Source: Thermoplasmata archaeon
GTDB taxonomy: Archaea > Thermoplasmatota > Thermoplasmata > RBG-16-68-12
Reading direction: 5' to 3'
DNA: 64,000 bases
Assembly: GCA_035636315.1 (NCBI GenBank)
Contig: DASPZJ010000050.1
Span: 34,831 to 98,830, forward strand
How positions within the stretch are numbered: the first letter of the stretch is position 1; the number at the start of each line of letters is the position of its first letter. Below, piece after piece: positions 6,421-31,208 of this stretch. The position numbers and the translations under genes were made by a program. The notes below the pieces were generated by a model. The model was not told the origin of the DNA, did not search any database, and saw nothing but the letters and a program-made list of their open reading frames with translations.

Positions 6421-6520
6421 GCAACCGTGCGGAGGCCGGGTGGCGCGAATAAAGGCTCTTCCGTGATTTTAGGAAATGATACTCTTCGCACCGCGCTCGG
6501 CCGAATCGCGCGCGAAAACG

Positions 6521-11380: not shown

Positions 11381-11471
11381 CGAGGTACCCGGGGGCCCGA
11401 ATTGCGGCCAACCGCAACGTCGCATCGGTTTATATATCGCCTCGCGGCCTGACGGCGGGACGGGTGGTCGT

Positions 11472-11984: not shown

Positions 11985-11986
11985 GT

Positions 11987-13072: not shown

Positions 13073-13130
13073 GGACTGCGCGAGATGCGGCCCTCGACCA
13101 TAAAAGGGTGAGGCTCCGGCCGGCTTGGCG

Positions 13131-14804
13131 TCAGCCCCAGCCGATCCAGTAGAGCCGCGCGTAGCCGTTGTCGAACACCTTGATGAACGGCGCATTGTCG
13201 AACTTCGCGATCACGGCGGGATCCATCGGCACCGCGGCCTCCCAGGGAGTGAGCCGCACCCCCGCCTCCATGTCCCGGTCGATCCAGACGTACGTTCCGT
13301 TCTTCGTCCCGGAGGGGGATTCGATCCCGGAGAAGTCCGCCGGGTCCCATACGGGGTGCGTGAACGGCGTCCGCGTCCGGTCCCACGTTGCGTTGATTCC
13401 ACCGAACCCGAAGACGGTCGAGGAGCCGTGGTGGTCCGAGACGAGCAGACCGCTCACGTGGTCCCTCGCCCAGTAGGCCGGGTCGAGCGCCGCGGGGATT
13501 GTGCCTTCCCGCCATCCCGCCAGGGTCGACGGCGGCGGGATCCCGGTCAAGCCGTTCGCCAGCAGGAGGCCTCCGCACACGGCGAGCACGGCGTATCGTT
13601 TCCGGGCCCGGAGGCCGCCGAGGTCCAGGAGGCGGAAGAACCCGACGCCCGCGAAGACCGCGAACGGGATCATGAGGTACTCTGCGTGGCGGTAGGGGAT
13701 GAGGACCCGCGGGGCGGCGACGATCCCGACGACCGCGGACAGCAAGAGGGCCACGAGCCACGCGTTCGGATGGATGCCCTCCCGTTCGAGGTCCAGGAAC
13801 TTCCTCCCCGACGCGGAGAAGGACATGAGTATCGCGAGGGGCACGAAGTACAGGAGGCCGGCGACCGGCACCCGGAACGAGGTTCCCGGGACCACGGAGA
13901 CGACGGTCACGACGCCGATGACGAAGAGTGTCCCCGAGGCCGCCGCACACGCCGAGGCCGAAGGGGCCAGCCGCGGGAACGTGGGTCGGTACCGCCACGC
14001 GAGCCGGGTCCTCGCGGCGATCAGCCCGGCGAGCGCGGCGACGCCCGCCCCGAAGCCGACGAAGAGGAGCCACCACGGCCGGATGTCCACGTCCGGGAGG
14101 ATCCATTCGCGGAACGCGGTGGCGTAGCCGAACCAGTACGCGAACGTCCCGCCGATCAGGACGACGGCGAAGGTGACCTGCCGGCTCGATTCCGCGTCCG
14201 CGCGCCACGGTCGCGCGAACCCTCGGATGACGAGCGCGCCCAGGACCATCAGGATGAAGAAGTACAGCGAGAGGTGGTGGGTTGGGATGAGCGCCCCCGA
14301 GACGAGCAGGAGCGGCGCCATGGCCCGTCGGTCCGTGCGGAGCCGGAGGAACAGGATCAGCCCGGTCAGGGCGAGGACGTCCCCGAGGGTCGCTGGCGCC
14401 GAGTGCGCGGTCGTGTACGCGTGCGGGATCGCCCCGGCCAGGAACGCCGCGGCGAACAACCCGATGCGGTCGTCCCTCGCGATCCGGACCGCCAGGAGGA
14501 ACATCGGCAACACGGCCAACGCGCCGATCACGGGCACCAGGAGGTTGAGGACCGTCGGAAGGTCGAGGCCGCCGAGCTCCACGAGGCCCGCCTGCGGGAA
14601 GAATACGCCCGGGAAGTAAGGATACGTGACCCCCCAGCCGTAATAGGTCGTCGAGACGTGCCCGGTCCGGACGACGTTTCGCAGGATCGAGAAGTACTCG
14701 GCGGTGTCGGAGCCCCAATAGAGGAACGACCACAGAGGCGCCAGTCGGACCGCGATCGCTCCGAGGACGATTGCGCCCAAGGCGATCGCGGTGGACTTCC
14801 GCAT
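13131..14804 (-). CDS. polytopic membrane glycosyltransferase-like protein (GT-C fold, ArnT/PMT/AglB-like) with C-terminal soluble domain
   Basis: 557 aa with >=10 predicted TM helices in the first ~400 aa and a C-terminal ~150-aa hydrophilic domain (DPAYWARDHVSGLLVSDHHGSST...). Adjacent to the GT4 cluster. The overlapping 651-aa and 704-aa ORFs on other frames are Arg/Gly-rich artefacts. Confidence 0.55.
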   Translation of the reverse strand: MRKSTAIALGAIVLGAIAVRLAPLWSFLYWGSDTAEYFSILRNVVRTGHVSTTYYGWGVTYPYFPGVFFPQAGLVELGGLDLPTVLNLLVPVIGALAVLPMFLLAVRIARDDRIGLFAAAFLAGAIPHAYTTAHSAPATLGDVLALTGLILFLRLRTDRRAMAPLLLVSGALIPTHHLSLYFFILMVLGALVIRGFARPWRADAESSRQVTFAVVLIGGTFAYWFGYATAFREWILPDVDIRPWWLLFVGFGAGVAALAGLIAARTRLAWRYRPTFPRLAPSASACAAASGTLFVIGVVTVVSVVPGTSFRVPVAGLLYFVPLAILMSFSASGRKFLDLEREGIHPNAWLVALLLSAVVGIVAAPRVLIPYRHAEYLMIPFAVFAGVGFFRLLDLGGLRARKRYAVLAVCGGLLLANGLTGIPPPSTLAGWREGTIPAALDPAYWARDHVSGLLVSDHHGSSTVFGFGGINATWDRTRTPFTHPVWDPADFSGIESPSGTKNGTYVWIDRDMEAGVRLTPWEAAVPMDPAVIAKFDNAPFIKVFDNGYARLYWIGWG

Positions 14805-14912
14805 CGGCCGCGAACCCGGCCCCGGCTACTAAAGGGTTGTCTCGTCCCGCCGACGCGCATTCCACGAAACCGGGTCGCAAACTATTTCTTTCGAGGGCTT
14901 TCTGTCCGTTCG

Positions 14913-15239
14913 ATGTCCTTCCGGTGCCCGGAGTGCTACGCCGAACTCCCGGAGGACACGATGTGGGTGTGCCCCGTTTGCCGGTACACGCTGCGGACGC
15001 CGGGCGCCGCGAAGGTGGGGGTGGTGCTCATGGTCCTCGGACTCGTCCTCCTCGGCGCCTTCGTGTATGGACCGGACCAGCTCGGGCTCACCAACGGATT
15101 CGTCCCGACGGATTTGGCTCGGATGACGATCGCGAACTTCCCGTTGCTCGTGTTCGGCGCCTTCGCACTCGGTGCATTCCTCGTCGCGGCCGCGGCGCTG
15201 AAGATTCGGAGCGAGCAGGCCCGGGTCGCGTCGGCCTAG
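14913..15239 (+). CDS. small zinc-ribbon membrane protein (109 aa)
   Basis: MSFRCPECYAELPEDTMWVCPVCRYTL (CxxC...CxxC) followed by two hydrophobic helices. It is the only non-junk part of track ORF 13125..15239. Confidence 0.45.
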   Translation: MSFRCPECYAELPEDTMWVCPVCRYTLRTPGAAKVGVVLMVLGLVLLGAFVYGPDQLGLTNGFVPTDLARMTIANFPLLVFGAFALGAFLVAAAALKIRSEQARVASA

Positions 15240-18200
15240 AAGAAGTCGTCGAGCTTGAGGTCCTGCGTCTTGTCGTTCGTGAAGAGCGACGTGATCGCGT
15301 CCTCGATGAGTTCGATCCGTTGCCGGAGGTAGTTCGACACCTCGAACTGGGCGCTGATTCGCTTTGAGATCTCGAGGTACTTCTTGACGGAACTCTCGTG
15401 GACCGTGAGCGTGAGGTTGCCCCCGCAGGCGAGGCACCGACCTCGGAGCGGGATCCGGCGGTACTTCTCTCCGCACCGGGTGCATCGGACCTGCTGACTC
15501 GAGAACGCCTTCAGGTTCCCGATCAGGTCCGGGAGGAAGTGGTGGACGACGATCCTCGCGACGACGTCGTTCGGGTCCACCGCGCGGATCCGGAGGGCGA
15601 GCTCGAGCTGCTTCTCGATCTTCTCGGCCATCGATCCTTCCCCGTAGGCCGACGCGAGGGGGCCCTGCGCGACGCTCGACGTCGCATGGGTGTACGAGAA
15701 CCCCTCGTATTGGAGGACGCTCCCGATCCGCTTGCTCACCGTGTCGATCTGCGGCTCGATCTCGCGCGGGTGGGCGAAGCGCTCGGCCGCGTCGTACAGG
15801 CTCGGCGGGTACGCCGCGAGGACGTCGAGGTTGTGGGCCTCCTTGTCGATTTCGTTCGGGTCGATGCGGGTCGTGATGACGAGCGGCGCATCCATCAGGC
15901 CGCCCCGCTTGTCCGGGAGGAACGCCCGGGAGAAGTTGATCAGGCTGTCCAGGAGCAAGATGACCGAATCCTCGTCGCCGTCGCAGTTCCGGCGGCGGGC
16001 GGCGATGAGGAAGGGATGGGCGAAGCACGCCAATGCGTCCGTGAATCCGACGATCCGGGCGACGACGCCTGCGCTCGTGTGCGGGGCGAGCGTGACGACG
16101 AGTTGGCCGAGTAGATCCTCCGGCCGCGTCGCGCCATAGAATCGGGACAGGCCATAGAGGCGTTCGAGGAGATCGTCGACGAACGACGCGACGCGCACGA
16201 GGTATTCGCCGCACGACCGGGCGACGAGGATGTCTTGCGTCCTCAGCTCGAGCACCTGATCGTCGCGCTCGAGAAGCTGGCCCCGCAGATCCCTCGAGTA
16301 GCCAAGCCGGCGCGCCGCTTCGACCGAGATGCCGGCCTCGTTCGGGGTGAAGTGGGTGAGCGGGAGGTTCGTCATGTCGTACCGGGTCGTTCCGTCCTTG
16401 AACACGTAGATCTCGTGTTTCGCGCGTAGCACGCCCTTCTCAAGCGGCTCCGGCGTCTTCGTCTTCGAGATCATGCCCTGGACCGCCTTGATTGCCGGAG
16501 CCTTCGATTCGCCGACCCGATCGAGCGCCGCCCGGAGGACGTCGGCGAGGGGGACGCGTTGCCTCGTCGGTCCGCCTCGCGGCGTCGTGTGTCCTCCGCA
16601 CGAGCACTTCGGGAGGAACCACCGCTTCCCGCACGCCCCGCAGATGCGGAGCCCGACTTCGATCTCGATCGTGTCCTTCGAAGCGGCGTCGACCAGGAGG
16701 CGCTGGGCGCCGCCGTCGTGGCCGATCGGGAAGAGGGCGTGGGGTGCGGGCTGCATCTTCCGCGGGGCCGCCTTCTCCGGCCGGGCCATCCGCGCGCCGA
16801 TGCGGGTCGGGCCGCGCGCCTTCACGGGGAAGCCCGCCAGGGACGACACGAATGCGAGCGGGTCTTCCGTCTCCGGCGAGGGCCCGATCCGGAGCATCCC
16901 GCCGTCTCGTTCGATGCCGAGGGTCGCGAGCAACGATTCGGTGTGCCGCTCGACGATCAGCTCGTCCCCTCGCGCTTGGTACGGCGCGCCGAGCCGCACG
17001 AGCCATTCCCTCGGCTCCTCGTCGTTCGGGAGCCGGAGCCGGCCGTCTTCGATGCGGCCGTGGACCGTGACGAGCTCGCGGAACCGGGTGAGCTCCTCGA
17101 CGGTTAGGTCGTGGTAGAAGAGATTGTACCGGGGATGGAGCGGCACTCCGAGCTCGCGGGACCACGCGAGCGCCTGTTCCGCCGTCGCCGTCTCCCACCC
17201 GTCGGGCAAGGAGCCGAGCTTCCCTTGGAGCAGCGCCCCGTACCATTCGAGGCAGAAGGCGCCGGGCATCAGCAGGTGATTGTTCTCGAGGAACTCCCCG
17301 AACGGGACGAGGATTTCGCCGAGGTCCGCGATGACGCGGACGCGGGGCGTGAGCCGCTTCGCCGTGGCGGCATCGGAGATTTCGATGAAGTCGCCGTCGT
17401 CGAGGACGACGAGCGGCCCTTCGATCGTATCGCACGGCGTCACCGCGCCGGCCTTCCCCGGACGCTCCGTCTTGATTTGCGTGCCGACCGCGATGAAATC
17501 GTCGAGGATGTGCATCGTCGCGGGATGGAGTGCAAGCGCCGCGAGGCCCGTCGCGCGCGTCCGCCCGTACCGGAGGCGCAGGCCGCCGGCGCGGCTCGGA
17601 TGACAGAGGACCGGCCGGCCCGCGACGATGTTCTGGATGAAGACCTCGCTCGGTTCGACCCCCGCCTCGTCCTTCAGTTCCTCCGGCCGCGCCGATTTCT
17701 CCGCGAGATACGCGTCGATGAACTCCCATCCGTCGATCCGGAGCTTCTTCACGTGCTTCTGGATCTTCGGCGCCTTCAGGCACATGCCGTCCGCGATGAC
17801 GAGGCAAGCGCCGCCGCGGATCCGGTTCGTCTCGATCCGCGGGAGGTCGCGGAATCCGCTGATCTCGGCGTCCTCGGTGCCCTCGCCGTTGATCCCCACG
17901 GGGCAGTGGGCGACGATCAGCGCGATCTCCTCCTCGGACGGTGTGTATTGGAGGTGCTGGGCCTGCTTGTACAGCGGGATTTCCTCTTTGAACCGCTCGA
18001 CCTCCTCCCGCACCGGCTCGTATCGCCCGATGCCGAGTTCCCGCCGGACGACGTCCGCGATGAGGACGCTCAGGGCCTGGCCGGTCCCGCCCGCGGACCG
18101 GATCGGGCCGGCATAGTACAGGTCGACGTACGAGGAGCCGTCGCGGTTCCTCTTGAGCTTCACACCGGCCAGGCCTTCGAGGGGCGCGACCAGGATGCCC

Positions 18201-18544
18201 TCCGTCAGGATCGCCAGGCCCACCCGGACGGCGCGCTCGACCGCCCTCTCCTTGCTCGCCGCAGGCCGCTGGGCGATCTCTTTCGCCACGAGGATCGCGA
18301 GCTCCTCGCGGTCGTGGTGTTTCGCGAGCTCGCGGATTCGGCGGGCGACCCCTTCGACGTCGTAGTTCTCGAGCAGCTTCTCGACACGGGATGCGAGGTC
18401 GTCCGTCAGAGGGATCTCCACATCGAGCTCCGGATCGTAGCCGCGCGCCCGCGCGGCACGGCCGACCGCATACGCGGCCTCGACTTGTTTCTGCAGGGTC
18501 GCGAAGTAGGACCGGACCCCTTCGGACGCGATCGGAGAACCCAT
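15236..18544 (-). CDS. polC: DNA polymerase II (PolD) large subunit DP2
   Basis: 1102 aa. N-terminus MGSPIASEGVRSYFATLQKQVEAAYAVGRAARARGYDPELDVEIPL and C-terminus ...QDLKLDDFF are characteristic of euryarchaeal DP2. Internal Cys clusters (CGACGKRWFLPKCSCGGHT; CTRCGEKYRRIPLRGRCLACGG). No intein. Confidence 0.9.
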   Translation of the reverse strand: MGSPIASEGVRSYFATLQKQVEAAYAVGRAARARGYDPELDVEIPLTDDLASRVEKLLENYDVEGVARRIRELAKHHDREELAILVAKEIAQRPAASKERAVERAVRVGLAILTEGILVAPLEGLAGVKLKRNRDGSSYVDLYYAGPIRSAGGTGQALSVLIADVVRRELGIGRYEPVREEVERFKEEIPLYKQAQHLQYTPSEEEIALIVAHCPVGINGEGTEDAEISGFRDLPRIETNRIRGGACLVIADGMCLKAPKIQKHVKKLRIDGWEFIDAYLAEKSARPEELKDEAGVEPSEVFIQNIVAGRPVLCHPSRAGGLRLRYGRTRATGLAALALHPATMHILDDFIAVGTQIKTERPGKAGAVTPCDTIEGPLVVLDDGDFIEISDAATAKRLTPRVRVIADLGEILVPFGEFLENNHLLMPGAFCLEWYGALLQGKLGSLPDGWETATAEQALAWSRELGVPLHPRYNLFYHDLTVEELTRFRELVTVHGRIEDGRLRLPNDEEPREWLVRLGAPYQARGDELIVERHTESLLATLGIERDGGMLRIGPSPETEDPLAFVSSLAGFPVKARGPTRIGARMARPEKAAPRKMQPAPHALFPIGHDGGAQRLLVDAASKDTIEIEVGLRICGACGKRWFLPKCSCGGHTTPRGGPTRQRVPLADVLRAALDRVGESKAPAIKAVQGMISKTKTPEPLEKGVLRAKHEIYVFKDGTTRYDMTNLPLTHFTPNEAGISVEAARRLGYSRDLRGQLLERDDQVLELRTQDILVARSCGEYLVRVASFVDDLLERLYGLSRFYGATRPEDLLGQLVVTLAPHTSAGVVARIVGFTDALACFAHPFLIAARRRNCDGDEDSVILLLDSLINFSRAFLPDKRGGLMDAPLVITTRIDPNEIDKEAHNLDVLAAYPPSLYDAAERFAHPREIEPQIDTVSKRIGSVLQYEGFSYTHATSSVAQGPLASAYGEGSMAEKIEKQLELALRIRAVDPNDVVARIVVHHFLPDLIGNLKAFSSQQVRCTRCGEKYRRIPLRGRCLACGGNLTLTVHESSVKKYLEISKRISAQFEVSNYLRQRIELIEDAITSLFTNDKTQDLKLDDFF

Positions 18545-19018: not shown

Positions 19019-19082
19019 ATTCGCTCTCGCACCTGATTCTCAGGTCGGCACGTTTTTAGCGTCCCCGCCGGGATGAAATCGC

Positions 19083-19949
19083 GTGCGCAAAATCCGGAGC
19101 GGAATCTATGGACTCAACCCGCTCCTCGACGGCGGCCTGAATGAGAACAGCACGACTGTCGTGATCGGCCGGTCGGGCGCGGGCAAGACGACCTTGGCCA
19201 CGCAGTTCATCCGCCGAGGCCTGCAGGAAGGCCAAGAGGGCGTCTTCGTCTCTCTCGACGAAAACAAGGAACAGATCATCCGTGAGGCCGTCGAGATGGG
19301 CTGGTCGGACATCCTCGAGTACCTCGACGACGAGCTTCTCGTGTTCATCGACGCGTCGGGTCGGGAGTTCTCGAACTTCATCCGCAAGGAGCTCCCCGCG
19401 TTCGTCGCGGACTGGAAGGGGAGCAACGCGCGCATCGCGATCGACCCGCTCACGCCGGTCCTCTGGTCGACGAAGGACCTGTACGAGCAACGCGACCTGA
19501 TTGGCTACATGTTCAAGCAGACGCGGAAAGTCGGGACGGTCCTCTGCACGCTCGAGGAACACGGACAGGCGGACCTCGCCGGCCCGGAGACCGTCATCCC
19601 GATGTACCTCGCGGACTGCGTGATCCACTTGAAGTTCAACAGCGACGGCGCGGACCCGTCGCGCCTACTGAAGATCGTGAAGTGCCGGAACAGCCGCCAC
19701 AGCCAAGGGGCCCATGCCTACGAGATCGTCCGCGGCCTCGGGATCGTCCTCGAGGATGTCGACGGCCGCAAGCCCACGACCTCCAAGGCCCCGTCGCAGC
19801 TGCGGCAGATGCTCCTTACCCGCTCGATGCCGAAGAACGTGAGGGACCATCTCGAGAAGTCTCTCGACGGGCTCACGGACGAGGACTTCCGCTCCTTGAA
19901 GCCCGAGCGTGTGCTCGAGATGATCCTCCAGGAGTACCAGGGGGCGTGA
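19083..19949 (+). CDS. KaiC-like / RecA-superfamily ATPase (single-domain, archaeal KaiC/RadB family)
   Basis: IRSGIYGLNPLLDGGL (KaiC N-motif), Walker A GRSGAGKTT, Walker B LVFIDASG. Confidence 0.75.
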   Translation: MRKIRSGIYGLNPLLDGGLNENSTTVVIGRSGAGKTTLATQFIRRGLQEGQEGVFVSLDENKEQIIREAVEMGWSDILEYLDDELLVFIDASGREFSNFIRKELPAFVADWKGSNARIAIDPLTPVLWSTKDLYEQRDLIGYMFKQTRKVGTVLCTLEEHGQADLAGPETVIPMYLADCVIHLKFNSDGADPSRLLKIVKCRNSRHSQGAHAYEIVRGLGIVLEDVDGRKPTTSKAPSQLRQMLLTRSMPKNVRDHLEKSLDGLTDEDFRSLKPERVLEMILQEYQGA

Positions 19950-19950
19950 G

Positions 19951-20643
19951 ATGGCGCGCGGTCTCGGTCGCGCGCTCGAGCAGGCGGTCGCCCGGGACGG
20001 GCCGGACGAGGACCTCGAGATCGAGGGACGCAGCCTCGCGAACGCGCGCCGCCGCCAGATGTTCCGCTATCTCTGCCGCAAGCCGTGCGCTCGGGTCGGC
20101 GAGATCGGGCGGGAGCTCGCGATGTCCCAGGCCACAGTGCGGTGGCATGCGTGGGATCTCGTGGAGAACGGATACGTGCAAATCGAGGGCACCCGGGCGT
20201 TCCCGAAAGGCCTGATCGATCCGGAGGATGCGGCGATGTTCGCGTCCCTCGCGTCGTCGGGCCGAGCCGCCATTCTTGAGGCCGTATTCCGGCAACCGGG
20301 GCTCTCGTTTCAGGAGCTCGCCGCTGCGCTCAGTTTGACGCGGCAGTCCGTGAGCAAGATTGCCTCGGAGCTCGCGGACTTCGGGCTGCTCACCCTCGTC
20401 GACGACGGTCGGTACCGCCGCGTGTATCCGACGGACCTGATCCCGCGGAAACGCGAATCGAACCGGGCCCGGTCGAACGCCTTTGCGGACGGCCTGCTGC
20501 GCCGGCTCACCGAAGAAGGCCTCTCGCCCGAGCTCCTGCGGCGGGACGAGACGACGGTCCTCGTGCGGTTCGGCAGCGGTTCCAAGAAGGTCGTCCTCGA
20601 CGTCACGCTCGACCCGTACGCCACGGCGTGGAAAGGTCCCTGA
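19951..20643 (+). CDS. transcriptional regulator with two ArsR/MarR-like winged-helix domains
   Basis: RRRQMFRYLCRKPCARVGEIGRELAMSQATVRWHAWDLVENGYV and a second wHTH AAILEAVFRQPGLSFQELAAALSLTRQSVSKIASELADFGLLT. Start is 2 nt after the KaiC-like gene. Confidence 0.6.
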   Translation: MARGLGRALEQAVARDGPDEDLEIEGRSLANARRRQMFRYLCRKPCARVGEIGRELAMSQATVRWHAWDLVENGYVQIEGTRAFPKGLIDPEDAAMFASLASSGRAAILEAVFRQPGLSFQELAAALSLTRQSVSKIASELADFGLLTLVDDGRYRRVYPTDLIPRKRESNRARSNAFADGLLRRLTEEGLSPELLRRDETTVLVRFGSGSKKVVLDVTLDPYATAWKGP

Positions 20644-20727
20644 GCGACACGTGTTAACGGATCGTATAGACCCTGTGATAGGGACGATATAAGGCCCTTT
20701 AAGCCCCCGTCCCACCCGCTCTTGTAG

Positions 20728-23700
20728 ATGGACGAGAGCTATCGCGAGTGGCTATCCTCGATCCCCGGATGGACCGCGGACAAGGCGCAGAAGGTCGGGG
20801 AACGCTTCCCCACGTACGAGCTGCTGCGCGCGGCGAGCCGCGACGAGCTCTCGGCGATCGAAGGCCTCACGTCGGGCGAGGCGGACGCCCTATTCGGCCT
20901 GGTGCATGGCACCTCCGAGGGCGATGCGTCCGGCCATCTGTTCCTGTGCCCGGAATGCGGCTCCTTCGCTGGCGCGGGCGCGACGAAGTGCCCGTCGTGC
21001 GGCGTCGAATTCGGCGGCTCCGAAGATATCGCCGTCGGGAAGGAGCTCGACGCCTTCCTCGAGGACGAGGACGCGCCCGCTCGTATCTGTCTCTCGTGCG
21101 GCGCCGCGATGGCGAAAGGGGACGCGACCTGCGGCGTGTGCGGCCGCGAATATCGTAGGGAGGAACTCGCCCTCCTGCCCGGGCTCGATGGGAGCCTCGA
21201 CGAGGAAGCTCCGTTCTGCCCCCGCTGCGGGGCGTATCTCTTCGCGGACGAATCGGAGTGCGCGATCTGCGGCACGGCCCTGAACGCTCCAACGCCCCCG
21301 GTCACGAACGGGAAGGAGAAGGGCGTCGTGAAGGACTTCCTCAGCCGGTGGCAGCGGGTCGCGGACGCCACGGAGACCACGGAGGCGGAGCGGCTCCAGG
21401 AAGAGCTCGATCATTACGATCGGTTGCTGGAGGCGGACCCGACACTCGAGCGGGCGTGGGCGAAGCGCGCGAAGGTCCTCGAGAAACTCGGACGCCCCGC
21501 GGAGGCGGCGGAGTCCCTCGCGAAGGCCGGAGAGCTGAACCCGGCGCGCGAGGACCAGTACCGCGTCGAGGTCCAGGACGTGACGCGGACGAAGGAGGAC
21601 GTGCCCGTCCTGTCGCCGAAATGGCAGCAGCCCGTCGCGACGGCCGCGCCGAAAGCGCTCGATCCCCGACTCATCGAAGCGCTCGATCACTACGAATCCC
21701 TGTTGCGGGCGGACCCATCCCTCGCGGTCGCATGGCGCACGAAGGGCGAGATCCTGGAGCGACTCGGCCGCTCGGACGAATCGCGCGTCGCCCGCGAGCG
21801 AGCGGACCGGCTCGAACGCGACGAGGGTCGCGCCCTCCAGGCCGCCGCGGAAGGACTCCGGGCGCCGGGCCTCGCGTCCTCGGACCTCGCGGGCGGCGGC
21901 CGCATGAACGGCCGCGTCAGCGGCACGAAAGGGGGTCACACGAACGGCCGCACCAACGGCCACACGAACGGCCGCACGAACGGACGCGTGAACGGCCTGT
22001 CGGAGGGCCGCGTCAACGGCCTGACGACCGGCGCGGTGAACGGCCTAACGTTCGGGCACGGGGCGACGAACGGCCTCGTGAACGGGAACGGCTTCACGAA
22101 CGGCCGGCGGGGCCGCTACGGCACCCCGCGGATTCCGGCGCAGCCGCACTGGTCCCACTCCGTCGTGGGAATCGCCGCGGTCGTCGCCCTCATGGTGATC
22201 GTCCCGATCCTCGTGAGCTTCCTTTCTCCGTCCCCCGCCGGGCCGACCTCGATCATCCGGATCGACGGGGATTTCAGCGACTGGTCCAGGTTCCCGGCGT
22301 ACGCGGACTCGCCGACGGACGCGGTCCAGACGCCCGATGTCAACCTCGTCGCCATGAAGGTCGCGACGCAGGACCGGAACCTGTTCGTCGAGGCGCAGGT
22401 TCAGGGCCTCTTGTTCCAGGGCCCCGCCGCAAACCAGACGGGCAGCGTGTTCGTCTTCGTCGACGAAGACAACGACCGCACGACCGGGTACCCGATCGGC
22501 GACCTCGGCGCGGATTCCATGGTCGAGGTGTACGGATGGCGAGATGTGTCCGCGATCCAGCACGGCGTCTCGGCGTTCGCATTCAACGAGACGGGGGTGA
22601 CGCGCTCGAACGACTTCCGGCGGTTCCTGCCTAGCGGCTCCGCGGACGCCGCGTTCCTCGGCTCGCAGATCGAAATCCGAACGACCGTCCGGGATGCGAC
22701 GAGGGCGCGGGTCCTCGTCTACGCGGCGGACAACCTTGGCGGCCGGGACGCGGCGGATGGCTCCGTGCGTCCTTCCCTCCCGACGGTCGTCCTGGGCCAG
22801 CAGACGGTCGCGCCCGACATCGTCACGACGCCCCGGGCGGTCGTCCTGCGAGTGACGCTCGCGCCGCTCGGAGGCGCGCCCCATGTCACCGGGTTGAACC
22901 TCACGCGGGTGGGCGATTCGGCGGACCCGGTTGATGTGGCCCTGTATCGCGATGACGGGAGCGGCGCGCTCGATCCGGCGGATGCGTTCCTCTCGAACGC
23001 GTCGATGACCGCGAACGCCGTCAGCCTCGCGATGAACGAGAATCTCGCTGGGCCGGCGGTGTACTGGGTCGAAGCACGGTGGACGAACGTCACGCCGACG
23101 ACGACGTTCGGATTGACGGTGAGCGGAGTTGGCTCGAACGGCACCGCGAGCTTCCGAGCCCCCGAGACCGGGCTGGTCTACCTTGCTGCGGCACCGTCGA
23201 CGCTGAGAGTCGACGGCGCGTTCGGCGATTGGCGCGGTCAGATGTACGGTCAGGATCTCCTCGGCGACGTCACGAACCGAAGCGGCGCGACGGAATACGA
23301 CGCGAACGTGGACTTGCTCGCGACCGCAGTGAACGTGGCGGCGAACTTCACCGGATACGTTCGGGTGGACGGCCGCATGCTCGGAGGCCAAGACATCCCG
23401 ACCTCCCGCGAGCGGACGTACAATGCGCCCGTCGACACGGACCTCGACGGCGTGCCGGATTCGATCGAGACCCTCCTCGGCGCGGGCCTGTCCCAAGACT
23501 TCAACAACGACAACCGCACCGACGCGATGTCCGCGGGCGACGTGGACGGGGACGGCGTCATCGATTATCCCGCGGGCACCGACTGCTGGTTGAACACGAC
23601 GATCCCGGCATGGTATCCCGCGCCCTATGCGGGCCGAAGCGTGACGCGATTCATCTGCCCGATCGGACAGCCTCCCCAGGAGGGCGTGGACGTCGTGTAC

Positions 23701-25278
23701 GCGTACGTCGACGCCGACAACGCGACGAGCACCGGGCTCCTGTCCGACGTCGAAGGCCGGACGTACGGCTTCGACTACGCGATGGCGGTCATCGGTAGGA
23801 ACGGAGCGGTCAACTCGAGCGGCCTCTATGCCTTCGTGCCGGCTCGAGCGAACCCCTGGGCCCTCGTGCAGCCGATCGCCGTCGCGCTCGACGCGCATCG
23901 GATGGAATTCGCGGTGGACGCGAGCGCGCTGAACCTGGTCGCCGGGTACCGGGTCGTCTACTTCGCGTCGGACTGGCGGCTCGGATACGATGTCGCCCTG
24001 CCGGACGCCGCCGTCGCCCGCTTCCCGATCGCCGCGCAGGCCGCGACGAATCTCGTCATCAACGAGGTCTCGCCCCAGCCGAACGTGGAATGGGCGGAGA
24101 TCGCGAACCCGACGGCGAGCGCGGTCCCCCTGAACGGTTGGACCCTCGCAATCAACCACGGAAACAAGGCCGTCGTCGTCTACACGTTCTCCGGGACGAT
24201 CGGTGCCTGGGGATCCGGGCAGGAGTACCTCGCGGCCTTCTTGCCCGCGAACTCGCTCCCGAACGGCCAGACTCAATTGCTCCTCATGCAAGGGACCACG
24301 GTGATCGATGCGACAACGTACTCGTCGAACTCGGGCAGCGGCCGCACGTGGGCGCGGTTCAAGGACCCTGTGTCAGGCGTCCCTGCAGATACGAACAACG
24401 ATGCGGTGGACTTCTACCTCTCCTTGGCGCCCTCGTCCGGTCGCGCGAACGACCGCCACCGGCCGACGATCGCCCTCGCGAAGACCGCGAGCCGGGTCGT
24501 TGCGGCGCCGGGGGATCTCATCGTCTACACGTTGTATTACAACAACACGGACACGGGCATGGCGAAGTTCGTGTGGGTGAACGACACGCTCCCGGCGGGC
24601 GTTAGTTTTTCCTCGTCGAGCGTGCCGTACAATTCCGTCTCCGGTTCGACGTACGGGTGGGCCTTCACGAACGTGATGCCCGGCGCCCACGCCTTCACGG
24701 TCTCGGTACAGGTCACTGCCGCCACGGCGGATGGACAGGTGCTCCGCAACACGGCGACGTTGGATTACACGGATCAGCTGCGCCGGCCCCTTCCCCGGAG
24801 TCTCGGATGGGGGAACACGACCGTCGTACGACCGATGATCACGGTCGTCAAGATCGCCACGCCGTCGAACGCGAAACCGGGCGACCTGGTCACCTTCACG
24901 ATTTTCTACAACAACACGGGCTCCGTGGCGGCGGGAACGGTCACGATCAAGGACAGTTTCCCGAGCGGACTCGACTACGTCAGCGCGAGCCCGGCGGCAA
25001 CGTGGACGGACGGCCGGACGTTCTACTGGAACTTCACGAGCGTCGCACCGGGCGCCCATTCCCTCACGTTGATCGCGCGGGTGAACGCCAGCTTCTCGGG
25101 ATCGCAACTCGTCAACTGGGCGTTCCTGAATTACACGACGCCCGGAGGATTCCCGCTGATCGGGAGCAGTTCCTCGACGGTGGTGGCGATCCCGGAGCTC
25201 TCGGATATGATCTTCGTCGCGGCGGTCCCGTTGCTCATCATCGGGCTGAAAATCCGCGCGAAGCGGCGCGTCGAATAG
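20728..25278 (+). CDS. giant single-pass membrane protein: cytoplasmic HhH + 3 double-Zn-ribbons + TPR + (x-T/V-N-G)n repeat, TM, ~1000-aa extracellular domain with DUF11-like repeats, C-terminal PEF-CTERM-like anchor
   Basis: 1516 aa. N-terminal LSSIPGWTADKAQKVGERFPTYELLRAASRDELSAIEGLTSGEADAL (HhH-like). CPECGSF...CPSCGVEF, CLSCGAAM...CGVCGREY and CPRCGAYL...CAICGTAL are zinc ribbons. TPR-like helical repeats (ERAWAKRAKVLEKLGRPAEAAESLAKAGELNP...). NGRVSGTKGGHTNGRTNGHTNGRTNGRVNGL... repeat. TM helix SVVGIAAVVALMVIVPILVSFL. Many N-x-S/T sequons. C-terminal domains of the form ...YTLYYNNTDTG... and ...FTIFYNNTGSVAAGTVTIKD... (DUF11 / conserved-repeat-domain-like). Ends AIPELSDMIFVAAVPLLIIGLKIRAKRRVE (tripeptide + TM + basic tail). 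Confidence 0.8.
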   Translation: MDESYREWLSSIPGWTADKAQKVGERFPTYELLRAASRDELSAIEGLTSGEADALFGLVHGTSEGDASGHLFLCPECGSFAGAGATKCPSCGVEFGGSEDIAVGKELDAFLEDEDAPARICLSCGAAMAKGDATCGVCGREYRREELALLPGLDGSLDEEAPFCPRCGAYLFADESECAICGTALNAPTPPVTNGKEKGVVKDFLSRWQRVADATETTEAERLQEELDHYDRLLEADPTLERAWAKRAKVLEKLGRPAEAAESLAKAGELNPAREDQYRVEVQDVTRTKEDVPVLSPKWQQPVATAAPKALDPRLIEALDHYESLLRADPSLAVAWRTKGEILERLGRSDESRVARERADRLERDEGRALQAAAEGLRAPGLASSDLAGGGRMNGRVSGTKGGHTNGRTNGHTNGRTNGRVNGLSEGRVNGLTTGAVNGLTFGHGATNGLVNGNGFTNGRRGRYGTPRIPAQPHWSHSVVGIAAVVALMVIVPILVSFLSPSPAGPTSIIRIDGDFSDWSRFPAYADSPTDAVQTPDVNLVAMKVATQDRNLFVEAQVQGLLFQGPAANQTGSVFVFVDEDNDRTTGYPIGDLGADSMVEVYGWRDVSAIQHGVSAFAFNETGVTRSNDFRRFLPSGSADAAFLGSQIEIRTTVRDATRARVLVYAADNLGGRDAADGSVRPSLPTVVLGQQTVAPDIVTTPRAVVLRVTLAPLGGAPHVTGLNLTRVGDSADPVDVALYRDDGSGALDPADAFLSNASMTANAVSLAMNENLAGPAVYWVEARWTNVTPTTTFGLTVSGVGSNGTASFRAPETGLVYLAAAPSTLRVDGAFGDWRGQMYGQDLLGDVTNRSGATEYDANVDLLATAVNVAANFTGYVRVDGRMLGGQDIPTSRERTYNAPVDTDLDGVPDSIETLLGAGLSQDFNNDNRTDAMSAGDVDGDGVIDYPAGTDCWLNTTIPAWYPAPYAGRSVTRFICPIGQPPQEGVDVVYAYVDADNATSTGLLSDVEGRTYGFDYAMAVIGRNGAVNSSGLYAFVPARANPWALVQPIAVALDAHRMEFAVDASALNLVAGYRVVYFASDWRLGYDVALPDAAVARFPIAAQAATNLVINEVSPQPNVEWAEIANPTASAVPLNGWTLAINHGNKAVVVYTFSGTIGAWGSGQEYLAAFLPANSLPNGQTQLLLMQGTTVIDATTYSSNSGSGRTWARFKDPVSGVPADTNNDAVDFYLSLAPSSGRANDRHRPTIALAKTASRVVAAPGDLIVYTLYYNNTDTGMAKFVWVNDTLPAGVSFSSSSVPYNSVSGSTYGWAFTNVMPGAHAFTVSVQVTAATADGQVLRNTATLDYTDQLRRPLPRSLGWGNTTVVRPMITVVKIATPSNAKPGDLVTFTIFYNNTGSVAAGTVTIKDSFPSGLDYVSASPAATWTDGRTFYWNFTSVAPGAHSLTLIARVNASFSGSQLVNWAFLNYTTPGGFPLIGSSSSTVVAIPELSDMIFVAAVPLLIIGLKIRAKRRVE
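21904..22105 (+). repeat. tandem 12-nt repeat (consensus ACGAACGGCCGC) encoding the x-T/V-N-G peptide repeat
   Basis: ~16 imperfect units visible in sequence 21904-22105, inside the 20728..25278 CDS. Confidence 0.7.
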
Positions 25279-25367: not shown

Positions 25368-25508
25368 GTCGCCGGCCCAAGCCCTCCTCAAAGGAGGGCA
25401 GGCTTCCCACGGGCTCGCGCACCGTAGTACCGCAGGGAACGTGGGCGGGCTTAACTTCCGGGTTCGGGATGGGACCGGGTGTATCCCCGCCGCTTTGGCC
25501 GTCAAACC
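25368..25508 (-). rRNA. 5S ribosomal RNA (with an apparent ~20-nt 3'-proximal hairpin insertion; ends approximate)
   Basis: Minus strand reads TTTGACGGCCAAAGCGGCGGGGATACACCCGGTCCCATCCCGAACCCGGAAGTTAAGCCCGCCCACGTTCCCTGCGGTACTACGGTGCGCGAGCCCGTGGGAAGCC. This matches the archaeal 5S consensus (CCCATCCCGAAC, GGAAGTTAAGCCC, GTGCGCGAGCC, TGGGAA). It is followed by a perfect hairpin GCCCTCCTttgAGGAGGGC and GGGCCGGCGACC. A TATA-like GATATATC lies ~30 nt upstream on the minus strand (25536-25543). Confidence 0.75.
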
Positions 25509-26129: not shown

Positions 26130-27095
26130 ATGGACGACGAACCGGCGCCGCGTGCGCCACCGGACGGGGGCTCCGAGCTGCCCCCGGACCGTTGCCCGAA
26201 TTGCGGGGGACCTCTGAAGTCCTTCTGGGACCAGCCCGAGGCCCTTTGCCCGGAGTGCCGGATCTTTGTCGAGATCCTGCGGGCCGGGAGCGTGAGGGGC
26301 TCTCCATCCGAGCCGGTGGCCGAAAGCCTCCATCACCGCTTGGGGCTTGCGAAATACCATCTGATGTCCGAAGAGCTCGACGAGGAAGATCTCGAGGACG
26401 AGCCGCAGAAGGTCGAGCTCGAGGCCGGGCCGCCGGAGCGATACCCGCCGGCGCCTCCCGCCGAGAGACTGCCGCCGGAGCCCGCCGCCGTCGAGGCTTC
26501 GGGGGCCACAGCCATCGCAGTCGACGACCGATCGACGGAGGGCGATCTAGAACCGCCCGAGCCGCCCGCGCCCGAGTCCGACGCATCGATCCCGACCGAG
26601 GATGACGAGACCCCGCCCGAACCGTTGCCGCAGCCCGAGATCACGGTCGAGGAGATTCCCCCGCCCACGGACGCGGAGGCTGCTCCGGAGGTCGAGGTCT
26701 ATGGCGAGCAAGGCTCGCAGCTCGTGATCGAAGAGCCCGTCGAACGAGTGCCGCGGTACCGAGAAGTCCCGCCGCTTCCGATGGCTCAGGCGGAATCGGT
26801 CCAGGCGGCCGGGCGGGTCTCGTCCACGCGCCCGTTGAGGCCCCGTCGGAGTCACAGGGTGATCTTCTACGCCGGCGGAGTCAACGTGGCCTTCGGCGGC
26901 GCGGTCCTCGTCTTCGGTTCGTTTCTCCACGACTTCTTCCGCGTCCCATTCATCGGTGAGTCGTACGGCGTGTTCGGGCCGCTGAACCTGTTCGCCGCCC
27001 AACTCGGCGCCATCTTCGTGGTCCTGGGAGTCGTCGCCATGACGGCCGCGGCGCGCCGAGGCCGCCGTCCGACCCGTCAGACCGCGGGAGGCTGA
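26130..27095 (+). CDS. zinc-ribbon / Pro-Glu-rich / C-terminal two-TM membrane protein
   Basis: MDDEPAPRAPP...RCPNCGGPLKSFWDQPEALCPECRIF (Zn ribbon), ~200 aa acidic P/E-rich linker, C-terminal helices VIFYAGGVNVAFGGAVLVFGSFL and LFAAQLGAIFVVLGVVAMTAA. Same architecture class as 4987..6420. Track ORF starts at 26022, but M at 26130 is the more plausible start. Confidence 0.55.
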   Translation: MDDEPAPRAPPDGGSELPPDRCPNCGGPLKSFWDQPEALCPECRIFVEILRAGSVRGSPSEPVAESLHHRLGLAKYHLMSEELDEEDLEDEPQKVELEAGPPERYPPAPPAERLPPEPAAVEASGATAIAVDDRSTEGDLEPPEPPAPESDASIPTEDDETPPEPLPQPEITVEEIPPPTDAEAAPEVEVYGEQGSQLVIEEPVERVPRYREVPPLPMAQAESVQAAGRVSSTRPLRPRRSHRVIFYAGGVNVAFGGAVLVFGSFLHDFFRVPFIGESYGVFGPLNLFAAQLGAIFVVLGVVAMTAAARRGRRPTRQTAGG

Positions 27096-27099
27096 GAGA

Positions 27100-29523
27100 G
27101 TGGACCCCGACCGTGGATCTCGAGGCCTCGTGAGCCATTCCGCGGCGGCTCCCCGCAATCCGAGTTCGTCCCGCGGATGGACGAACGGCGCCCGTGGCCG
27201 CACGAACGGATTGGTGGAGAGCCGCGGCCGGACGAACGGGCTCGTCCACGGGATCGGCTTCACGAACGGGGTCCGGCTTCGGCAGAGCAAGTACGGCATC
27301 GTGGCGCCGGCTGACTACCGTCGGGTCGTAGCCTTCATCGCTGCGTGCGTCCTCGTGATGGTCGTCCTCGGCTATTTCTTCGGCACCCCGGAGCCGTACC
27401 GGTCGCCCTTCGCGGTGGACGGCAACTTCTCCGAATGGGCGTCGGTGCCGACGTACACCGATCCGGTCGAGGCGCTCCCTGCGAGCGCGGACCTCATCGC
27501 CTTCAAGGTCCATGCGGAGCCGGGCCGGCTCTTCGTGTACGCGGAGACGGCAGGGCCGATCTTCCCCGGCACCGGGGTATCGAGCCTCTATCTCCTCATC
27601 GACGATCCGTCGAGGCGAGGATACACCGTCCAGGATCGCGACGTCGACTTCCTCGCCGAGGTGTGGGGATGGGGCGGGCAGGTCCGGGGAACGGTCGTCC
27701 GTCAGTGGACCGGAGATCCGGACCGGGACAACGCGACGGCGTTCCGCAGCAGCGGCGCGTTTGATGCGGCGTCTGCCGGATCGGAGGTCGAGTTGATGTT
27801 GACGGACACCCAGGTCGGTCTCGATTCCGTGCCGGGCTGGCGCTTTGCCCCTGCGGTGCGACTCGGAGACGACTTGGACATTGGAGCCACGGTCGGGCGG
27901 CCCCTTGGCGCGCTCGTCGTGGAACAAATTCCCCTGACGAGTTCGATCGCGTCGCCGACGCCCGTTCTCGAACTGCACCTCCAAGCCCTCGGAGGGAGCG
28001 TTGAGGTCCGCAGCTTCCTGTTCAACCACACCGGGGGAGGGACGATTCTCACGCCGGCGCTCCCGTTCATCGTCGCCGTGGGCCAGCCGCCGCGAGTCGT
28101 GCAAATCACCCTCGATCCGTCGGGCCTGCCCGCCGGTTCCTTCGTGTCGCTACGCCTCGTAGGCGCAGACGCCGTCGCGGCGGGAAGTTCGGACCCGGTT
28201 CCGGCCACCATCACCGAAGAAGGCGTTCGATTCTATGTGGGCCCGACGCCATCCGCCTATGTGGTCGACGGCCTGTTCGCCGAATGGACGACCCCGGTCT
28301 TGGATCCCGCCGATCCCCTCCCCGCCTCGATCGACCTGCGTGGGACGGCGTTCGCGGTCCCGGCCGACGCGTTCTTCTACGTTCACACGGCGGGGAGCAT
28401 CCTCGCAGGGGCGATCCTCCCCGAGCAGAGGACGATCCCCGTGGCAGCCGGAAACGGCACCCCGCCGGCGCCGCAACCACCTCGACGGAACGCCGCGGAG
28501 GACGTGCTGGACATCTATGTGGACACGGACAACCGCGACGCCGTCGGGATGGCGATCGGTGGCATCGTCGCGAACCGGTTCCTCGAGGTCCGCGGTCGGA
28601 ACGGGCGCGTCGCCTCCGCGACGCTGTATGCGTGGAACAATGTCACCTGGCGGTGGGACCCGAGCGTCGGGCGGTTCGATGTCGCCCTCGTCGGATCGGA
28701 GCTCGAGGCATCCGCCGACGCCGCTTTCTTCGGTCCGATGAACGGGTCGCGAGCCGTGTACGCGACGACGGACTGGACCCACCGGACCGACCTGACGGAC
28801 ATCCCGGCGCCGGCTTCGGCGCCAACTCTGAAGACCCAGGTTTCTCCGCTCCATTCGCCGGTGCCGGACGAGATCACGGCAACTTCCCTCGTCAACACTC
28901 CGGTCATCGACGGAATCTGTGGCACGTCCCCGGACGAGTACCTCGGGGCGAGCGTCGCGAGCAATCCTTCCATGAGTTTCGCCATCGGCCGGCGCGACGA
29001 CACTCAGTTCCTGTACGTATGCATCCATGTGACCCTCGATACGACAAAGAGCCCGAACGACTGGGACGAGGTGATCTTCGACACGAAGCACGACGGCGGA
29101 GGCGCCCCGCAGACCGACGACCGCCTCCTCTATGTGTTCGGAAATGGCGATACGACCGTCACGACATGGCAGGGGAACGGGGTGGGATGGGACGCCACTT
29201 GCGGCAGCTGCGATTCCGGGGATGCCGGCGCGAGCCGGTACGCCGGTGGCATTGAGAGCTACGAATTCAAGGTCCGCTACACGGACGTCTGGTCGACCCT
29301 CACCCCCTCTCCCGGCCAGACCGCGGGGTTCGCGATCATCGACTACGACTTCAACCTCGGCGTGCTGCACACCTGGGGCGGGCCCACGGTCGACGAGAAC
29401 ATCCCGGACACCTGGGGGCATGTGTTCTACCCGATTCCCGAGTTCCCGATGGTGGCCCTTGGCGTGCTTCCCGCGGTGCTTATCCCCCTCCTCCGGCGGC
29501 GCGGCCGACGCGCTGCGCGGTGA
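27100..29523 (+). CDS. surface protein paralogous to the extracellular part of 20728..25278; N-terminal TNG repeats, TM, C-terminal PEF-CTERM sorting signal
   Basis: 807 aa. TNGARGRTNGLVESRGRTNGLVHGIGFTNG repeats, TM AFIAACVLVMVVLGYFF. VDGNFSEWASVPTYTDP...LIAFKVHAEPGRLFVYAETAGPIF aligns with IDGDFSDWSRFPAYADSP...LVAMKVATQDRNLFVEAQVQGLLF of the 1516-aa protein. C-terminus IPEFPMVALGVLPAVLIPLLRRRGRRAAR. Confidence 0.75.
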   Translation: MDPDRGSRGLVSHSAAAPRNPSSSRGWTNGARGRTNGLVESRGRTNGLVHGIGFTNGVRLRQSKYGIVAPADYRRVVAFIAACVLVMVVLGYFFGTPEPYRSPFAVDGNFSEWASVPTYTDPVEALPASADLIAFKVHAEPGRLFVYAETAGPIFPGTGVSSLYLLIDDPSRRGYTVQDRDVDFLAEVWGWGGQVRGTVVRQWTGDPDRDNATAFRSSGAFDAASAGSEVELMLTDTQVGLDSVPGWRFAPAVRLGDDLDIGATVGRPLGALVVEQIPLTSSIASPTPVLELHLQALGGSVEVRSFLFNHTGGGTILTPALPFIVAVGQPPRVVQITLDPSGLPAGSFVSLRLVGADAVAAGSSDPVPATITEEGVRFYVGPTPSAYVVDGLFAEWTTPVLDPADPLPASIDLRGTAFAVPADAFFYVHTAGSILAGAILPEQRTIPVAAGNGTPPAPQPPRRNAAEDVLDIYVDTDNRDAVGMAIGGIVANRFLEVRGRNGRVASATLYAWNNVTWRWDPSVGRFDVALVGSELEASADAAFFGPMNGSRAVYATTDWTHRTDLTDIPAPASAPTLKTQVSPLHSPVPDEITATSLVNTPVIDGICGTSPDEYLGASVASNPSMSFAIGRRDDTQFLYVCIHVTLDTTKSPNDWDEVIFDTKHDGGGAPQTDDRLLYVFGNGDTTVTTWQGNGVGWDATCGSCDSGDAGASRYAGGIESYEFKVRYTDVWSTLTPSPGQTAGFAIIDYDFNLGVLHTWGGPTVDENIPDTWGHVFYPIPEFPMVALGVLPAVLIPLLRRRGRRAAR
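27178..27270 (+). repeat. degenerate ACGAACGG-type repeat encoding TNG units
   Basis: acgaacggcgcccgtggccgcacgaacggattg...cggacgaacgggctcgtccacgggatcggcttcacgaacgggg. Same nucleotide unit as 21904-22105. Confidence 0.5.
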
Positions 29524-30656: not shown

Positions 30657-31208
30657 ATGATGGAACCGCGTCGGATGAAAGTAAAAGTCTGCCTCGTCGG
30701 GGAGCACGCGGTCGGCAAGACGTCCCTCATCAAACGCTACGTACTCAACGAGTACGACGACCGCTACATCGTGACGCTCGGCGCGAAGGTTTCCAAGAAG
30801 GAACTCGCCCTCACCCCGAAAGGCGCCGATCCGGTCCAGATGGACATGACGATCTGGGACATCATGGGGTCGAAGGGATTCCGAGAGCTGCTGCGGGAGG
30901 CATACTTCCACGGAGCCCAAGGCATCCTTGCTGTGGCGGACATCACGCGATACGACACGCTGGAGGACCTCGACTCCTGGGTCGAGTCCGTGTTCCGGAC
31001 CGTCGGCGAGATCCCTGTCACGTTCGCGATCAACAAGACGGACCTCAAAGAGCAGGCCGCGTTCGGCGAGGAGCAGGTGAAGCAGGCCACGGAGGCGTTC
31101 GACGCGCCCTACTTCTTCAGTTCGGCGAAATCCGGCGAGAACGTCGAACTCGTCTTCCGCACGCTCGGCGAGACGATTGCTCAGACCGCTTCGAAGTCCG
31201 CCGCCTAG
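30657..31208 (+). CDS. Ras-superfamily small GTPase (Rab/Ras-like)
   Basis: G1 KVCLVGEHAVGKTSL, switch II-like WDIMGSKGF (DxxG), G4 FAINKTD (NKxD), G5 FFSSAKSG (SAK). 183 aa. Confidence 0.7.
   Translation: MMEPRRMKVKVCLVGEHAVGKTSLIKRYVLNEYDDRYIVTLGAKVSKKELALTPKGADPVQMDMTIWDIMGSKGFRELLREAYFHGAQGILAVADITRYDTLEDLDSWVESVFRTVGEIPVTFAINKTDLKEQAAFGEEQVKQATEAFDAPYFFSSAKSGENVELVFRTLGETIAQTASKSAA

Follow-up and report, generated by a model that had tools for sequence, protein, structure and literature searches.

The DNA analysed here, called the window below, is a stretch of 64,000 nucleotides from a Thermoplasmata archaeon (contig DASPZJ010000050.1, positions 34,831 to 98,830). Three adjacent genes on its forward strand encode a KaiC-like ATPase, a double winged helix-turn-helix (wHTH) regulator, and a giant membrane protein of 1516 residues. 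The locus is best read as encoding a Thermoplasmata-specific trans-envelope module. It looks like an undescribed cell-surface-to-gene signalling system, with a function that we infer. The functional link between KaiC-fold proteins, wHTH regulators, and this family of receptor-like proteins is well supported and very probably real. The preferred reading, to which a probability of about 0.5 is given, is that the giant protein would act as a receptor for surface contact or glycans, and that its cytoplasmic head would communicate with a KaiC ring that sets the activity of the wHTH regulator. The locus had been picked out earlier by a model that read the letters of the window (the original prediction). 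The three genes, referred to as module 1, are the following:

19083-19949, + strand: KaiC-like ATPase, single-domain, 288 aa, GTG start (PF06745, E 7e-37)
19951-20643, + strand: double wHTH regulator, 230 aa, isoelectric point (pI) 9.2 (HTH_5 at residues 33-77; MarR_2/HTH_24 at residues 106-157)
20728-25278, + strand: giant protein, 1516 aa, predicted N-in/C-out (a single open reading frame, ORF)

All three co-directional ORFs lie exactly where the original prediction had placed them, and each has a coding-type G+C content at third codon positions (GC3, 0.85-0.90). The wHTH gene begins 1 nt past the stop codon of the KaiC gene, not after the 2-nt gap claimed before. An 84-nt spacer separates the wHTH gene from the giant gene.

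The first protein had been named as a KaiC-like ATPase, and this is borne out. Its PF06745 score is 127.4 bits, above the cut-off of 26.6, and it matches solved KaiC structures with E values around 3e-31. The Walker A motif (GRSGAGKT) is intact and the acidic pair DE is present (in SLDE); both are invariant in nine orthologs, which applies to the stand-alone KaiC only. Identity among KaiC orthologs is 64-100%. Their 65-residue C-terminal tail is also conserved and terminates in EY plus two or three residues. As a speculative detail, this EY tail could be a ligand of tetratricopeptide repeats (TPRs). The stand-alone protein is assigned to the KaiC-family ATPases and not to circadian KaiC: it has one domain, and it scores 101.9 bits against a cut-off of 408 for NF006799 and 58.8 against 546 for TIGR02655. 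The second protein exceeds the cut-offs of three wHTH families, HTH_24 (40.3 vs. 21.9 bits), MarR_2 (40.9 vs. 27), and HTH_5 (32.4 vs. 22), in two separate regions, in agreement with the double wHTH foreseen for it. It is classified as an ArsR/MarR-type winged-helix regulator, and DNA binding is predicted.

Gene order was followed in a scan at one genome per GTDB species, which gave 30 Thermoplasmata loci; the window proteins were mapped onto these loci and onto three metagenome contigs. All 25 loci with sufficient upstream DNA, 23 of them from GTDB species representatives, show the order KaiC, wHTH, giant, and no counter-example exists among the mapped loci. Four more loci are truncated upstream; they have the wHTH gene, and one also has the tail of KaiC. 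A wider stretch is common to most loci and consists of the DNA polymerase II large subunit (DP2), a thioredoxin, the triad, an A24 peptidase, and a Ras-like GTPase. Taken alone, the loci that share this stretch are weak evidence. Loci L031 and L032 have lost the wider synteny and kept the triad, at head identities of 26-29% and a KaiC identity of 64%. The linkage of the giant gene to KaiC and wHTH genes is thus conserved in other genomes, including these two outside the syntenic stretch. Giant orthologs are single ORFs of 1439-2396 residues with a common plan, and the module 1 giant is conserved evenly along its length.

The link between KaiC and the giant protein is stronger than had been claimed. 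An exhaustive HMMER search with ectodomain residues 506-1100, with clusters formed at 50% identity, gave a family of 593 clusters at E <=0.001 (134 at E <=1e-30). Heads were then surveyed in the best-scoring representatives of at least 900 residues (n=104). An N-terminal KaiC-like domain is fused to the head in 25 of the 104, and none of these domains has a canonical Walker A motif. Where the region is present, the P-loop reads GP[PAS]G.[ED]K[LD] or close to it, and the fused KaiC domains are accordingly predicted to be inactive. Heads with a helix-hairpin-helix (HhH) domain number 14, and about 44 have zinc ribbons or TPRs. At least three xNG units stand just ahead of the membrane helix in 87 of the 104 representatives. 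From this census, the core of the family appears to be repeat, membrane helix, and ectodomain, with modular heads among which the KaiC fold is a recurrent choice. All publicly named members come from Thermoplasmata or Thermoplasmatota metagenome-assembled genomes (MAGs), under the names 'RAD55 family ATPase', 'DUF11 domain-containing', and 'lamin tail domain-containing' only.

The part of the giant protein ahead of the ectodomain contains five features:

20728-20913, + strand: probable HhH domain, residues 1-62, acidic (from orthologs, Pfam listings of homologs, and the structural model)
20947-21270, + strand: three Cys4 zinc ribbons, C74/77/88/91, C121/124/135/138, and C164/167/178/181 (DZR and Zn_ribbon matches)
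21382-21861, + strand: two TPR blocks, residues 219-290 and 313-378 (TPR Pfam matches at 220-281; second block from the model)
21898-22122, + strand: juxtamembrane (R/L/H)(T/V)NG tetrapeptide repeat, residues 391-465, ending LVNGNGFTNGRRGR
22147-22242, + strand: transmembrane helix, residues 474-505 (hydropathy 2.89; position conserved in orthologs)

Protein-interaction modules make up the head in series: first the probable HhH domain, then three zinc ribbons, and finally two TPR blocks. The HhH domain holds at the family level, since HHH_5 reaches 52.4 and 43.2 bits in L031 and L032 (cut-off 27) and residues 1-62 of the window protein are modelled as a confident helical domain (predicted local distance difference test, pLDDT, about 83, range 79-87). 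The window protein itself, however, has no HhH match at E <=0.01. Zinc ribbons are present as foreseen, but they are three Cys4 ribbons and not three double ones; the 12 cysteines form six CxxC pairs between C74 and C181, and their columns are nearly invariant. The TPRs are likewise found where they were expected, with a pLDDT of about 90, and their Foldseek matches are peptide-binding TPR structures. A Foldseek search with the model of the whole cytoplasmic head returns TPR proteins only.

The repeat tethers the head to the membrane. It had been described as 14 x-T/V-N-G units, and about 10 canonical [TVI]NG units and additional degenerate ones are found, encoded by tandem DNA repeats of 12-24 nt. 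It has a net charge of +9 and is predicted to be disordered (pLDDT about 30, a low-confidence model). The repeat and the membrane helix are the most conserved segment of the giant protein, with a mean identity of 71%. A new juxtamembrane repeat is thus defined, and the constraint on it is stronger than on the folded domains that flank it.

The remaining features of the giant protein lie on the other side of the helix:

22243-25176, + strand: ectodomain, about 980 aa, all-beta, 19 N-glycosylation sequons
24034-24396, + strand: lamin-tail domain (LTD), residues 1103-1223 (PF00932)
24499-25128, + strand: two DUF11 domains, between residues 1258 and 1467 (Pfam)
25177-25278, + strand: C-terminal anchor with IPEL, hydrophobic helix, and KIRAKRR tail (hydrophobic segment 1484-1512)

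The ectodomain model is all-beta with a pLDDT of 84.5. It includes two DGxFxDW (CBM9-like) modules, Asp-rich loops, and cohesin-like and Ig-like folds. DUF11 is above its cut-offs in two copies (80.5 vs. 24.6 and 74.4 vs. 24 bits; PF01345 / TIGR01451). The LTD match is marginal (36.6 bits vs. a cut-off of 34.3), and the domain is also listed in many homologs. A sequence search of the PDB with the ectodomain gives one marginal match, the CLIPPER domain 9ifr (E 0.0014). The ectodomain can be described as a series of beta-sandwich domains of adhesin and carbohydrate-binding types, with likenesses to adhesins, pilins, cohesins, and CBM9. The anchor motif is IPEL in the giant, PIPEF in an 807-residue paralog described below, and VPIPEF in locus L037. 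Only the L031 ortholog reaches the PEF-CTERM model (TIGR03024), and weakly so (18.7 bits vs. a cut-off of 23).

The N-in/C-out topology is supported by five indicators that agree. A signal peptide is absent, and an RRGR cluster lies N-terminal to the helix. All 19 N-X-S/T sequons come after residue 569, and in 24 orthologs 0-4 sequons are inside versus 14-42 outside. The cysteines of the zinc ribbons are all N-terminal. Finally, the ATPase-fold KaiC domain holds the same N-terminal position in paralogs. The head is therefore predicted to be cytoplasmic rather than extracellular, and the arrangement described originally, a membrane helix after the cytoplasmic part and then a sequon-bearing outside part with DUF11-like repeats, is recovered. 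The ectodomain resembles an adhesin or a glycan binder and not a classical sensor of small ligands.

Two further modules had been reported in the window:

26130-27095, + strand: module 2 gene A, zinc ribbon at the N-terminus, followed by an acidic/Pro-rich linker and a pair of membrane helices (no Pfam family)
27100-29523, + strand: module 2 gene B, an 807-aa paralog of the giant with repeat, membrane helix, ectodomain, and PIPEF anchor, lacking a large head
62049-62669, + strand: module 3 regulator, single wHTH, 206 aa (Pfam MarR/IclR)
62674-64000, + strand: module 3 giant, running past the window end, with KaiC domain, TPR, one zinc ribbon, and the start of the repeat

The statement that the same module recurs twice holds in part. 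KaiC and wHTH genes are both absent from module 2 (26130-29523). Its gene B is 29% identical to residues 425-894 of the giant (E 4e-28), and the same two-gene arrangement is found in L004. That module 2 is one gene split by an error was considered and rejected, since L004 has the same two frames at 91-94% identity. Module 3 does combine a wHTH and a KaiC domain with a giant, but the wHTH is unrelated (BLAST finds no similarity between it and the wHTH of 19951-20643), and an inactive KaiC domain is fused to the giant itself. This domain scores 92.4 bits with PF06745. Its P-loop is degenerate (GPPGQEKL) and SSQS stands in place of the catalytic pair, so that it is read as an inactivated KaiC ('iKaiC').

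A metagenome scan for module 3 gave 79 loci (L035-L113). The full-length giant of L037, 98% identical to that of the window, has 1570 residues, a membrane helix at 573-599, an ectodomain, and the VPIPEF anchor. Full-length module 3 proteins are 1360-3088 residues long; their repeat has 14-24 units, their helix lies near residues 575-600, the ectodomain is variable, and the anchor is of the PEF type. Where upstream DNA is sufficient, almost every one of these 79 loci has a wHTH gene immediately before the giant gene; a few (L069-L071) give no match. Another example is the second module of L031. It consists of a wHTH gene, an active KaiC (PF06745, 6e-60), and a giant that begins with a homolog of the inactive KaiC domain of module 3.

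Several side observations concern module 3. Among close relatives its ectodomain varies from about 750 to about 2500 residues, with heads 67-98% identical, and selection seems to act differently on the receptor types of modules 1 and 3. The near-identical relative L037 encodes one more paralog right after its module 3 giant (14746-18000), with TPR, zinc ribbon, repeat, helix, and ectodomain. It matches only the C-terminal part (residues 188-450) of the window's module 3 fragment, so that the N-terminal part of the inactive KaiC domain is absent from it. With this extra paralog the organism has at least four family members.

The start of the module 3 giant is unusual. At 62647-62715 no in-frame ATG, GTG, or TTG precedes the conserved N-terminal GIEGFD motif. 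Of 76 orthologous junctions, 48 have one or more canonical in-frame starts within 75 nt upstream of GIEGFD, mostly an ATG placed 4 nt past the stop codon of the wHTH gene. In the remaining 28 junctions, among them that of the window (ACG at 62674), no canonical start is present, and the codon is usually ACG or ATT; complete ORFs among these 28 are intact and have roughly 1350-2700 residues. The pattern points to initiation at a near-cognate codon, or to termination-reinitiation that depends on the wHTH gene, and the non-canonical ACG at 62674 is the likely start. A +1 frameshift at GGG-TGA that would join the wHTH to the giant was dropped, since the ATG at this distance from the stop in most orthologs makes a near-cognate start the simpler explanation.

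Two stretches of non-coding DNA in module 1 are candidates for regulatory elements:

19032-19058, + strand: promoter-like region of the KaiC-wHTH operon, with palindrome CCTGAttcTCAGG abutting TATA-like GTTTTTAG about 25-30 nt before the GTG (direct reading)
20652-20705, + strand: non-coding block before the giant gene, comprising a TGTTAACGG box, three boxes that contain GATA, and, some 30 nt ahead of the ATG, TATA-like CTTTAAG (14 orthologous upstream regions aligned)

The first region is conserved across orthologous loci L004-L027, and a probe made from it occurs once in the window, with 0 chance matches expected. The second, a block of about 55 nt, is kept among loci whose proteins are 35-97% identical; its first 20 nt (20652-20671) also occur once in the window. 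Neither motif probe recurs upstream of the other modules or anywhere else in the window. The giant gene having its own conserved upstream block, and both motifs being single, points to two putative transcription units, KaiC-wHTH and giant, each with a candidate operator. In module 2, TATA-like TGTTTATC precedes the ATG of gene A at 26130.

The domain make-up, the topology indicators, the gene order, the recurrent KaiC fusions, and the upstream DNA are observed. In the signal flow proposed from them, the ectodomain would be engaged or clustered by a glycan, a surface, or contact with another cell. The signal would pass through the helix and the repeat into the head, which would recruit or release the neighbouring stand-alone KaiC-like ATPase. 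The ATPase or phosphorylation state of a KaiC hexamer would control the co-translated double-wHTH regulator, and the regulator would act on the conserved candidate operators before its own operon and before the giant gene. In the paralogous modules, the inactive KaiC domain in the head may dock onto an active KaiC ring or mimic it. The conserved triad and the fusions are what would be expected of a KaiC-centred signalling module. The physical contact between KaiC and the head, the direction of signalling, and the targets of the regulator are the parts of this scheme that we infer.

Several points weigh against the receptor reading. The conserved order comes mostly from one lineage with broad synteny, and L031 and L032 are the only independent cases. 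The fusions bear on KaiC-fold domains and not directly on the active neighbour, and an active KaiC is absent from the vicinity of the giant in all 79 module 3 loci. No recognised sensor fold is found in the ectodomain, for which a purely structural or adhesive role is possible. The topology is based on hydropathy, charge, and sequon counts and not on a dedicated predictor. With its own promoter, the giant gene could be just a regulated target. Lastly, everything here is computational, and the organisms are uncultured.

A tentative alternative with a real chance of being correct is that KaiC and the wHTH regulator are a self-contained pair, like GvpD/GvpE, that switches the giant gene. The giant protein would then be a structural or adhesive component of the cell coat, with a head for anchoring or oligomerisation. 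This would fit the TATA-like element and boxes of the giant gene, which are conserved and separate from the KaiC-wHTH operon. It would also fit an ectodomain made of domains of the adhesin, pilin, cohesin, and CBM9 types, in a protein that bears 19 sequons and is anchored twice. Thermoplasmatales have an unordered glycoprotein layer instead of an S-layer (PMC12448462), to which such a protein could belong. KaiC is moreover far better conserved (64-100% identity) than the head of the giant (26-97%), which is what is expected of a hub that does not co-evolve with one partner. A pure target, however, has no need of a conserved 470-residue cytoplasmic head. Conservation of the giant protein is also highest in its juxtamembrane repeat, and the KaiC-fold fusions in a quarter of the family point to physical coupling on the cytoplasmic side.

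The original prediction had spoken of a DNA-binding mega-protein. In such a model the giant would be a membrane-tethered DNA-binding protein, ToxR-like or a chromosome tether, with HhH and zinc ribbons on DNA and KaiC acting on the complex. The N-terminal HhH domain is real in the family, zinc ribbons are capable of binding nucleic acids, and the window has a further gene (4987-6468) for a zinc-ribbon protein, one that includes a SAP domain. The head is acidic, however, with a pI of 4.6 and a net charge of -5 for the HhH domain and a net charge of -15 for the zinc-ribbon region. HhH is also a minority head type (the 14 of 104 noted above), and other heads have an inactive KaiC in its place. 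DNA binding by the giant is therefore unsupported. The locus also has a gene of its own for a dedicated wHTH protein, which is basic (pI 9.2), and the model is very improbable.

Also hardly credible is a meaningless adjacency within one inherited stretch running from DP2 and thioredoxin through the triad to the A24 peptidase and Ras GTPase: most loci do share that entire stretch, but L031 and L032 keep the triad without the rest of it, the wHTH/KaiC/giant theme returns in paralogous modules at other places in the genome, and KaiC folds are fused to giants in 25 of 104 representatives.

The searches and samples set some bounds on these results. Word-index searches gave 44 homologs of the head and 41 of the ectodomain, exclusively from metagenomes or Thermoplasmata MAGs. 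The word-index search with KaiC returns matches of at least 80% identity only, so that neighbourhoods of distant KaiC genes are outside its reach. A near-identical contig, L004, is from a soil Thermoplasmata MAG and is 97% identical across giant residues 1-520. Many database homologs are fragments, and several end in or soon after the repeat or the membrane helix. In L002 (2591-6765) the giant is broken into ORFs of 382 and 999 residues near the second TPR block, upstream of the repeat. This split and these ends may be assembly errors, frameshift errors, or contig ends, or alternatively real variation.

The G+C content across the window is 63-72%, in archaeal DNA. One neighbouring gene of the wider stretch is recognised from its sequence:

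15236-18544, - strand: DNA polymerase II large subunit (DP2) gene

Other observations in the neighbourhood stand on their own. Shortly past the end of the giant gene comes a lone 5S rRNA gene (25386-25506, - strand, Rfam 75.2 bits); the window contains neither a 16S nor a 23S rRNA gene. A Ras/Rab-like small GTPase is encoded at 30657-31208 (+ strand, PF00071 E 2e-31). It is 79-99% identical across related Thermoplasmata loci and almost always adjoins an A24 prepilin-peptidase homolog (29594-30562, - strand). A strongly conserved Ras-family GTPase within a euryarchaeal lineage is possibly worth a separate study. The SAP-domain protein at 4987-6468 (- strand) has 493 residues and an N-terminal double zinc ribbon, and the genome seems rich in zinc-ribbon proteins. 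Three GT4-family glycosyltransferase genes (9057-13210, - strand) are followed by a gene for a 564-residue protein that has no Pfam match (13131-14825). The glycosyltransferases could be a source of glycans for the sequon-heavy surface proteins. Assignment of the locus to anti-phage defence was rejected: PADLOC gives generic P-loop and wHTH similarities only, and the giant is unmatched.

Archaeal signal transduction beyond two-component systems is poorly understood, and few inputs have been defined for the proposal of KaiC hubs. The family described here, of at least 593 clusters, is a concrete candidate for a membrane input, with a KaiC fold fused to a giant surface protein or an active KaiC beside it. 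The dedicated regulators and the candidate operators make the proposal testable. Family members are also likely to be major surface glycoproteins of abundant uncultured soil Thermoplasmata. A broader idea is doubtful at this stage: a Thermoplasmatota-specific class of single-pass receptors might couple an adhesin- or lectin-like ectodomain, via a basic repeat, to KaiC-fold rings (built-in and inactive, or active and recruited) whose hexamerisation would give the wHTH output. If true, archaea would have an equivalent of integrin-type outside-in signalling, and a membrane input would for the first time be assigned to the KaiC hub network that has been proposed.

The likeness to single-pass receptors of the integrin or ToxR type is one of analogy: one helix joins a large outside binding domain to a cytoplasmic interaction platform. 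There is no homology, and the Foldseek match to integrin legs reflects generic stacking of Ig-like domains (TM-scores 0.10-0.15). The ectodomain recalls fibrillar adhesins and Gram-positive pilins (AgI/II, BcpA, CLIPPER), cohesins, and CBM9. Those proteins lack a large cytoplasmic head and a link to KaiC, and their anchoring chemistry differs. With cyanobacterial circadian KaiC, the stand-alone protein shares the ATPase fold, Walker A, and the acidic catalytic pair. It has one domain and 288 residues, however, while circadian KaiC has a double domain and about 520 residues. No KaiA or KaiB gene is seen among the neighbours examined.

In GvpD/GvpE of haloarchaeal gas vesicles and in the CirA-type KaiC homologs of motility, an ATPase of the KaiC/RecA fold modulates a transcription factor or a surface structure. 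There is no sequence orthology (the best NCBIfam matches are far below their cut-offs), and those systems have no giant membrane partner. The underlying concept is that of Makarova, Galperin and Koonin (mBio 2017; cited in PMC5847659 and PMC6393860), who reportedly proposed that KaiC-like ATPases and their inactivated homologs serve as archaeal signalling hubs with input and output domains. A link of KaiC or iKaiC to a giant adhesin-like transmembrane protein, or the (R/L)(T/V)NG repeat, is undescribed in the searchable literature; a related neighbourhood in the supplement of the mBio 2017 paper is possible. The module described here shares with those hubs a single-domain KaiC-like ATPase that is operon-linked to a wHTH protein, iKaiC domains that are fused to other modules, and a lineage-specific distribution. 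It differs in its partner, which is a transmembrane adhesin-like glycoprotein of 1400-3200 residues with a unique (R/L)(T/V)NG repeat.

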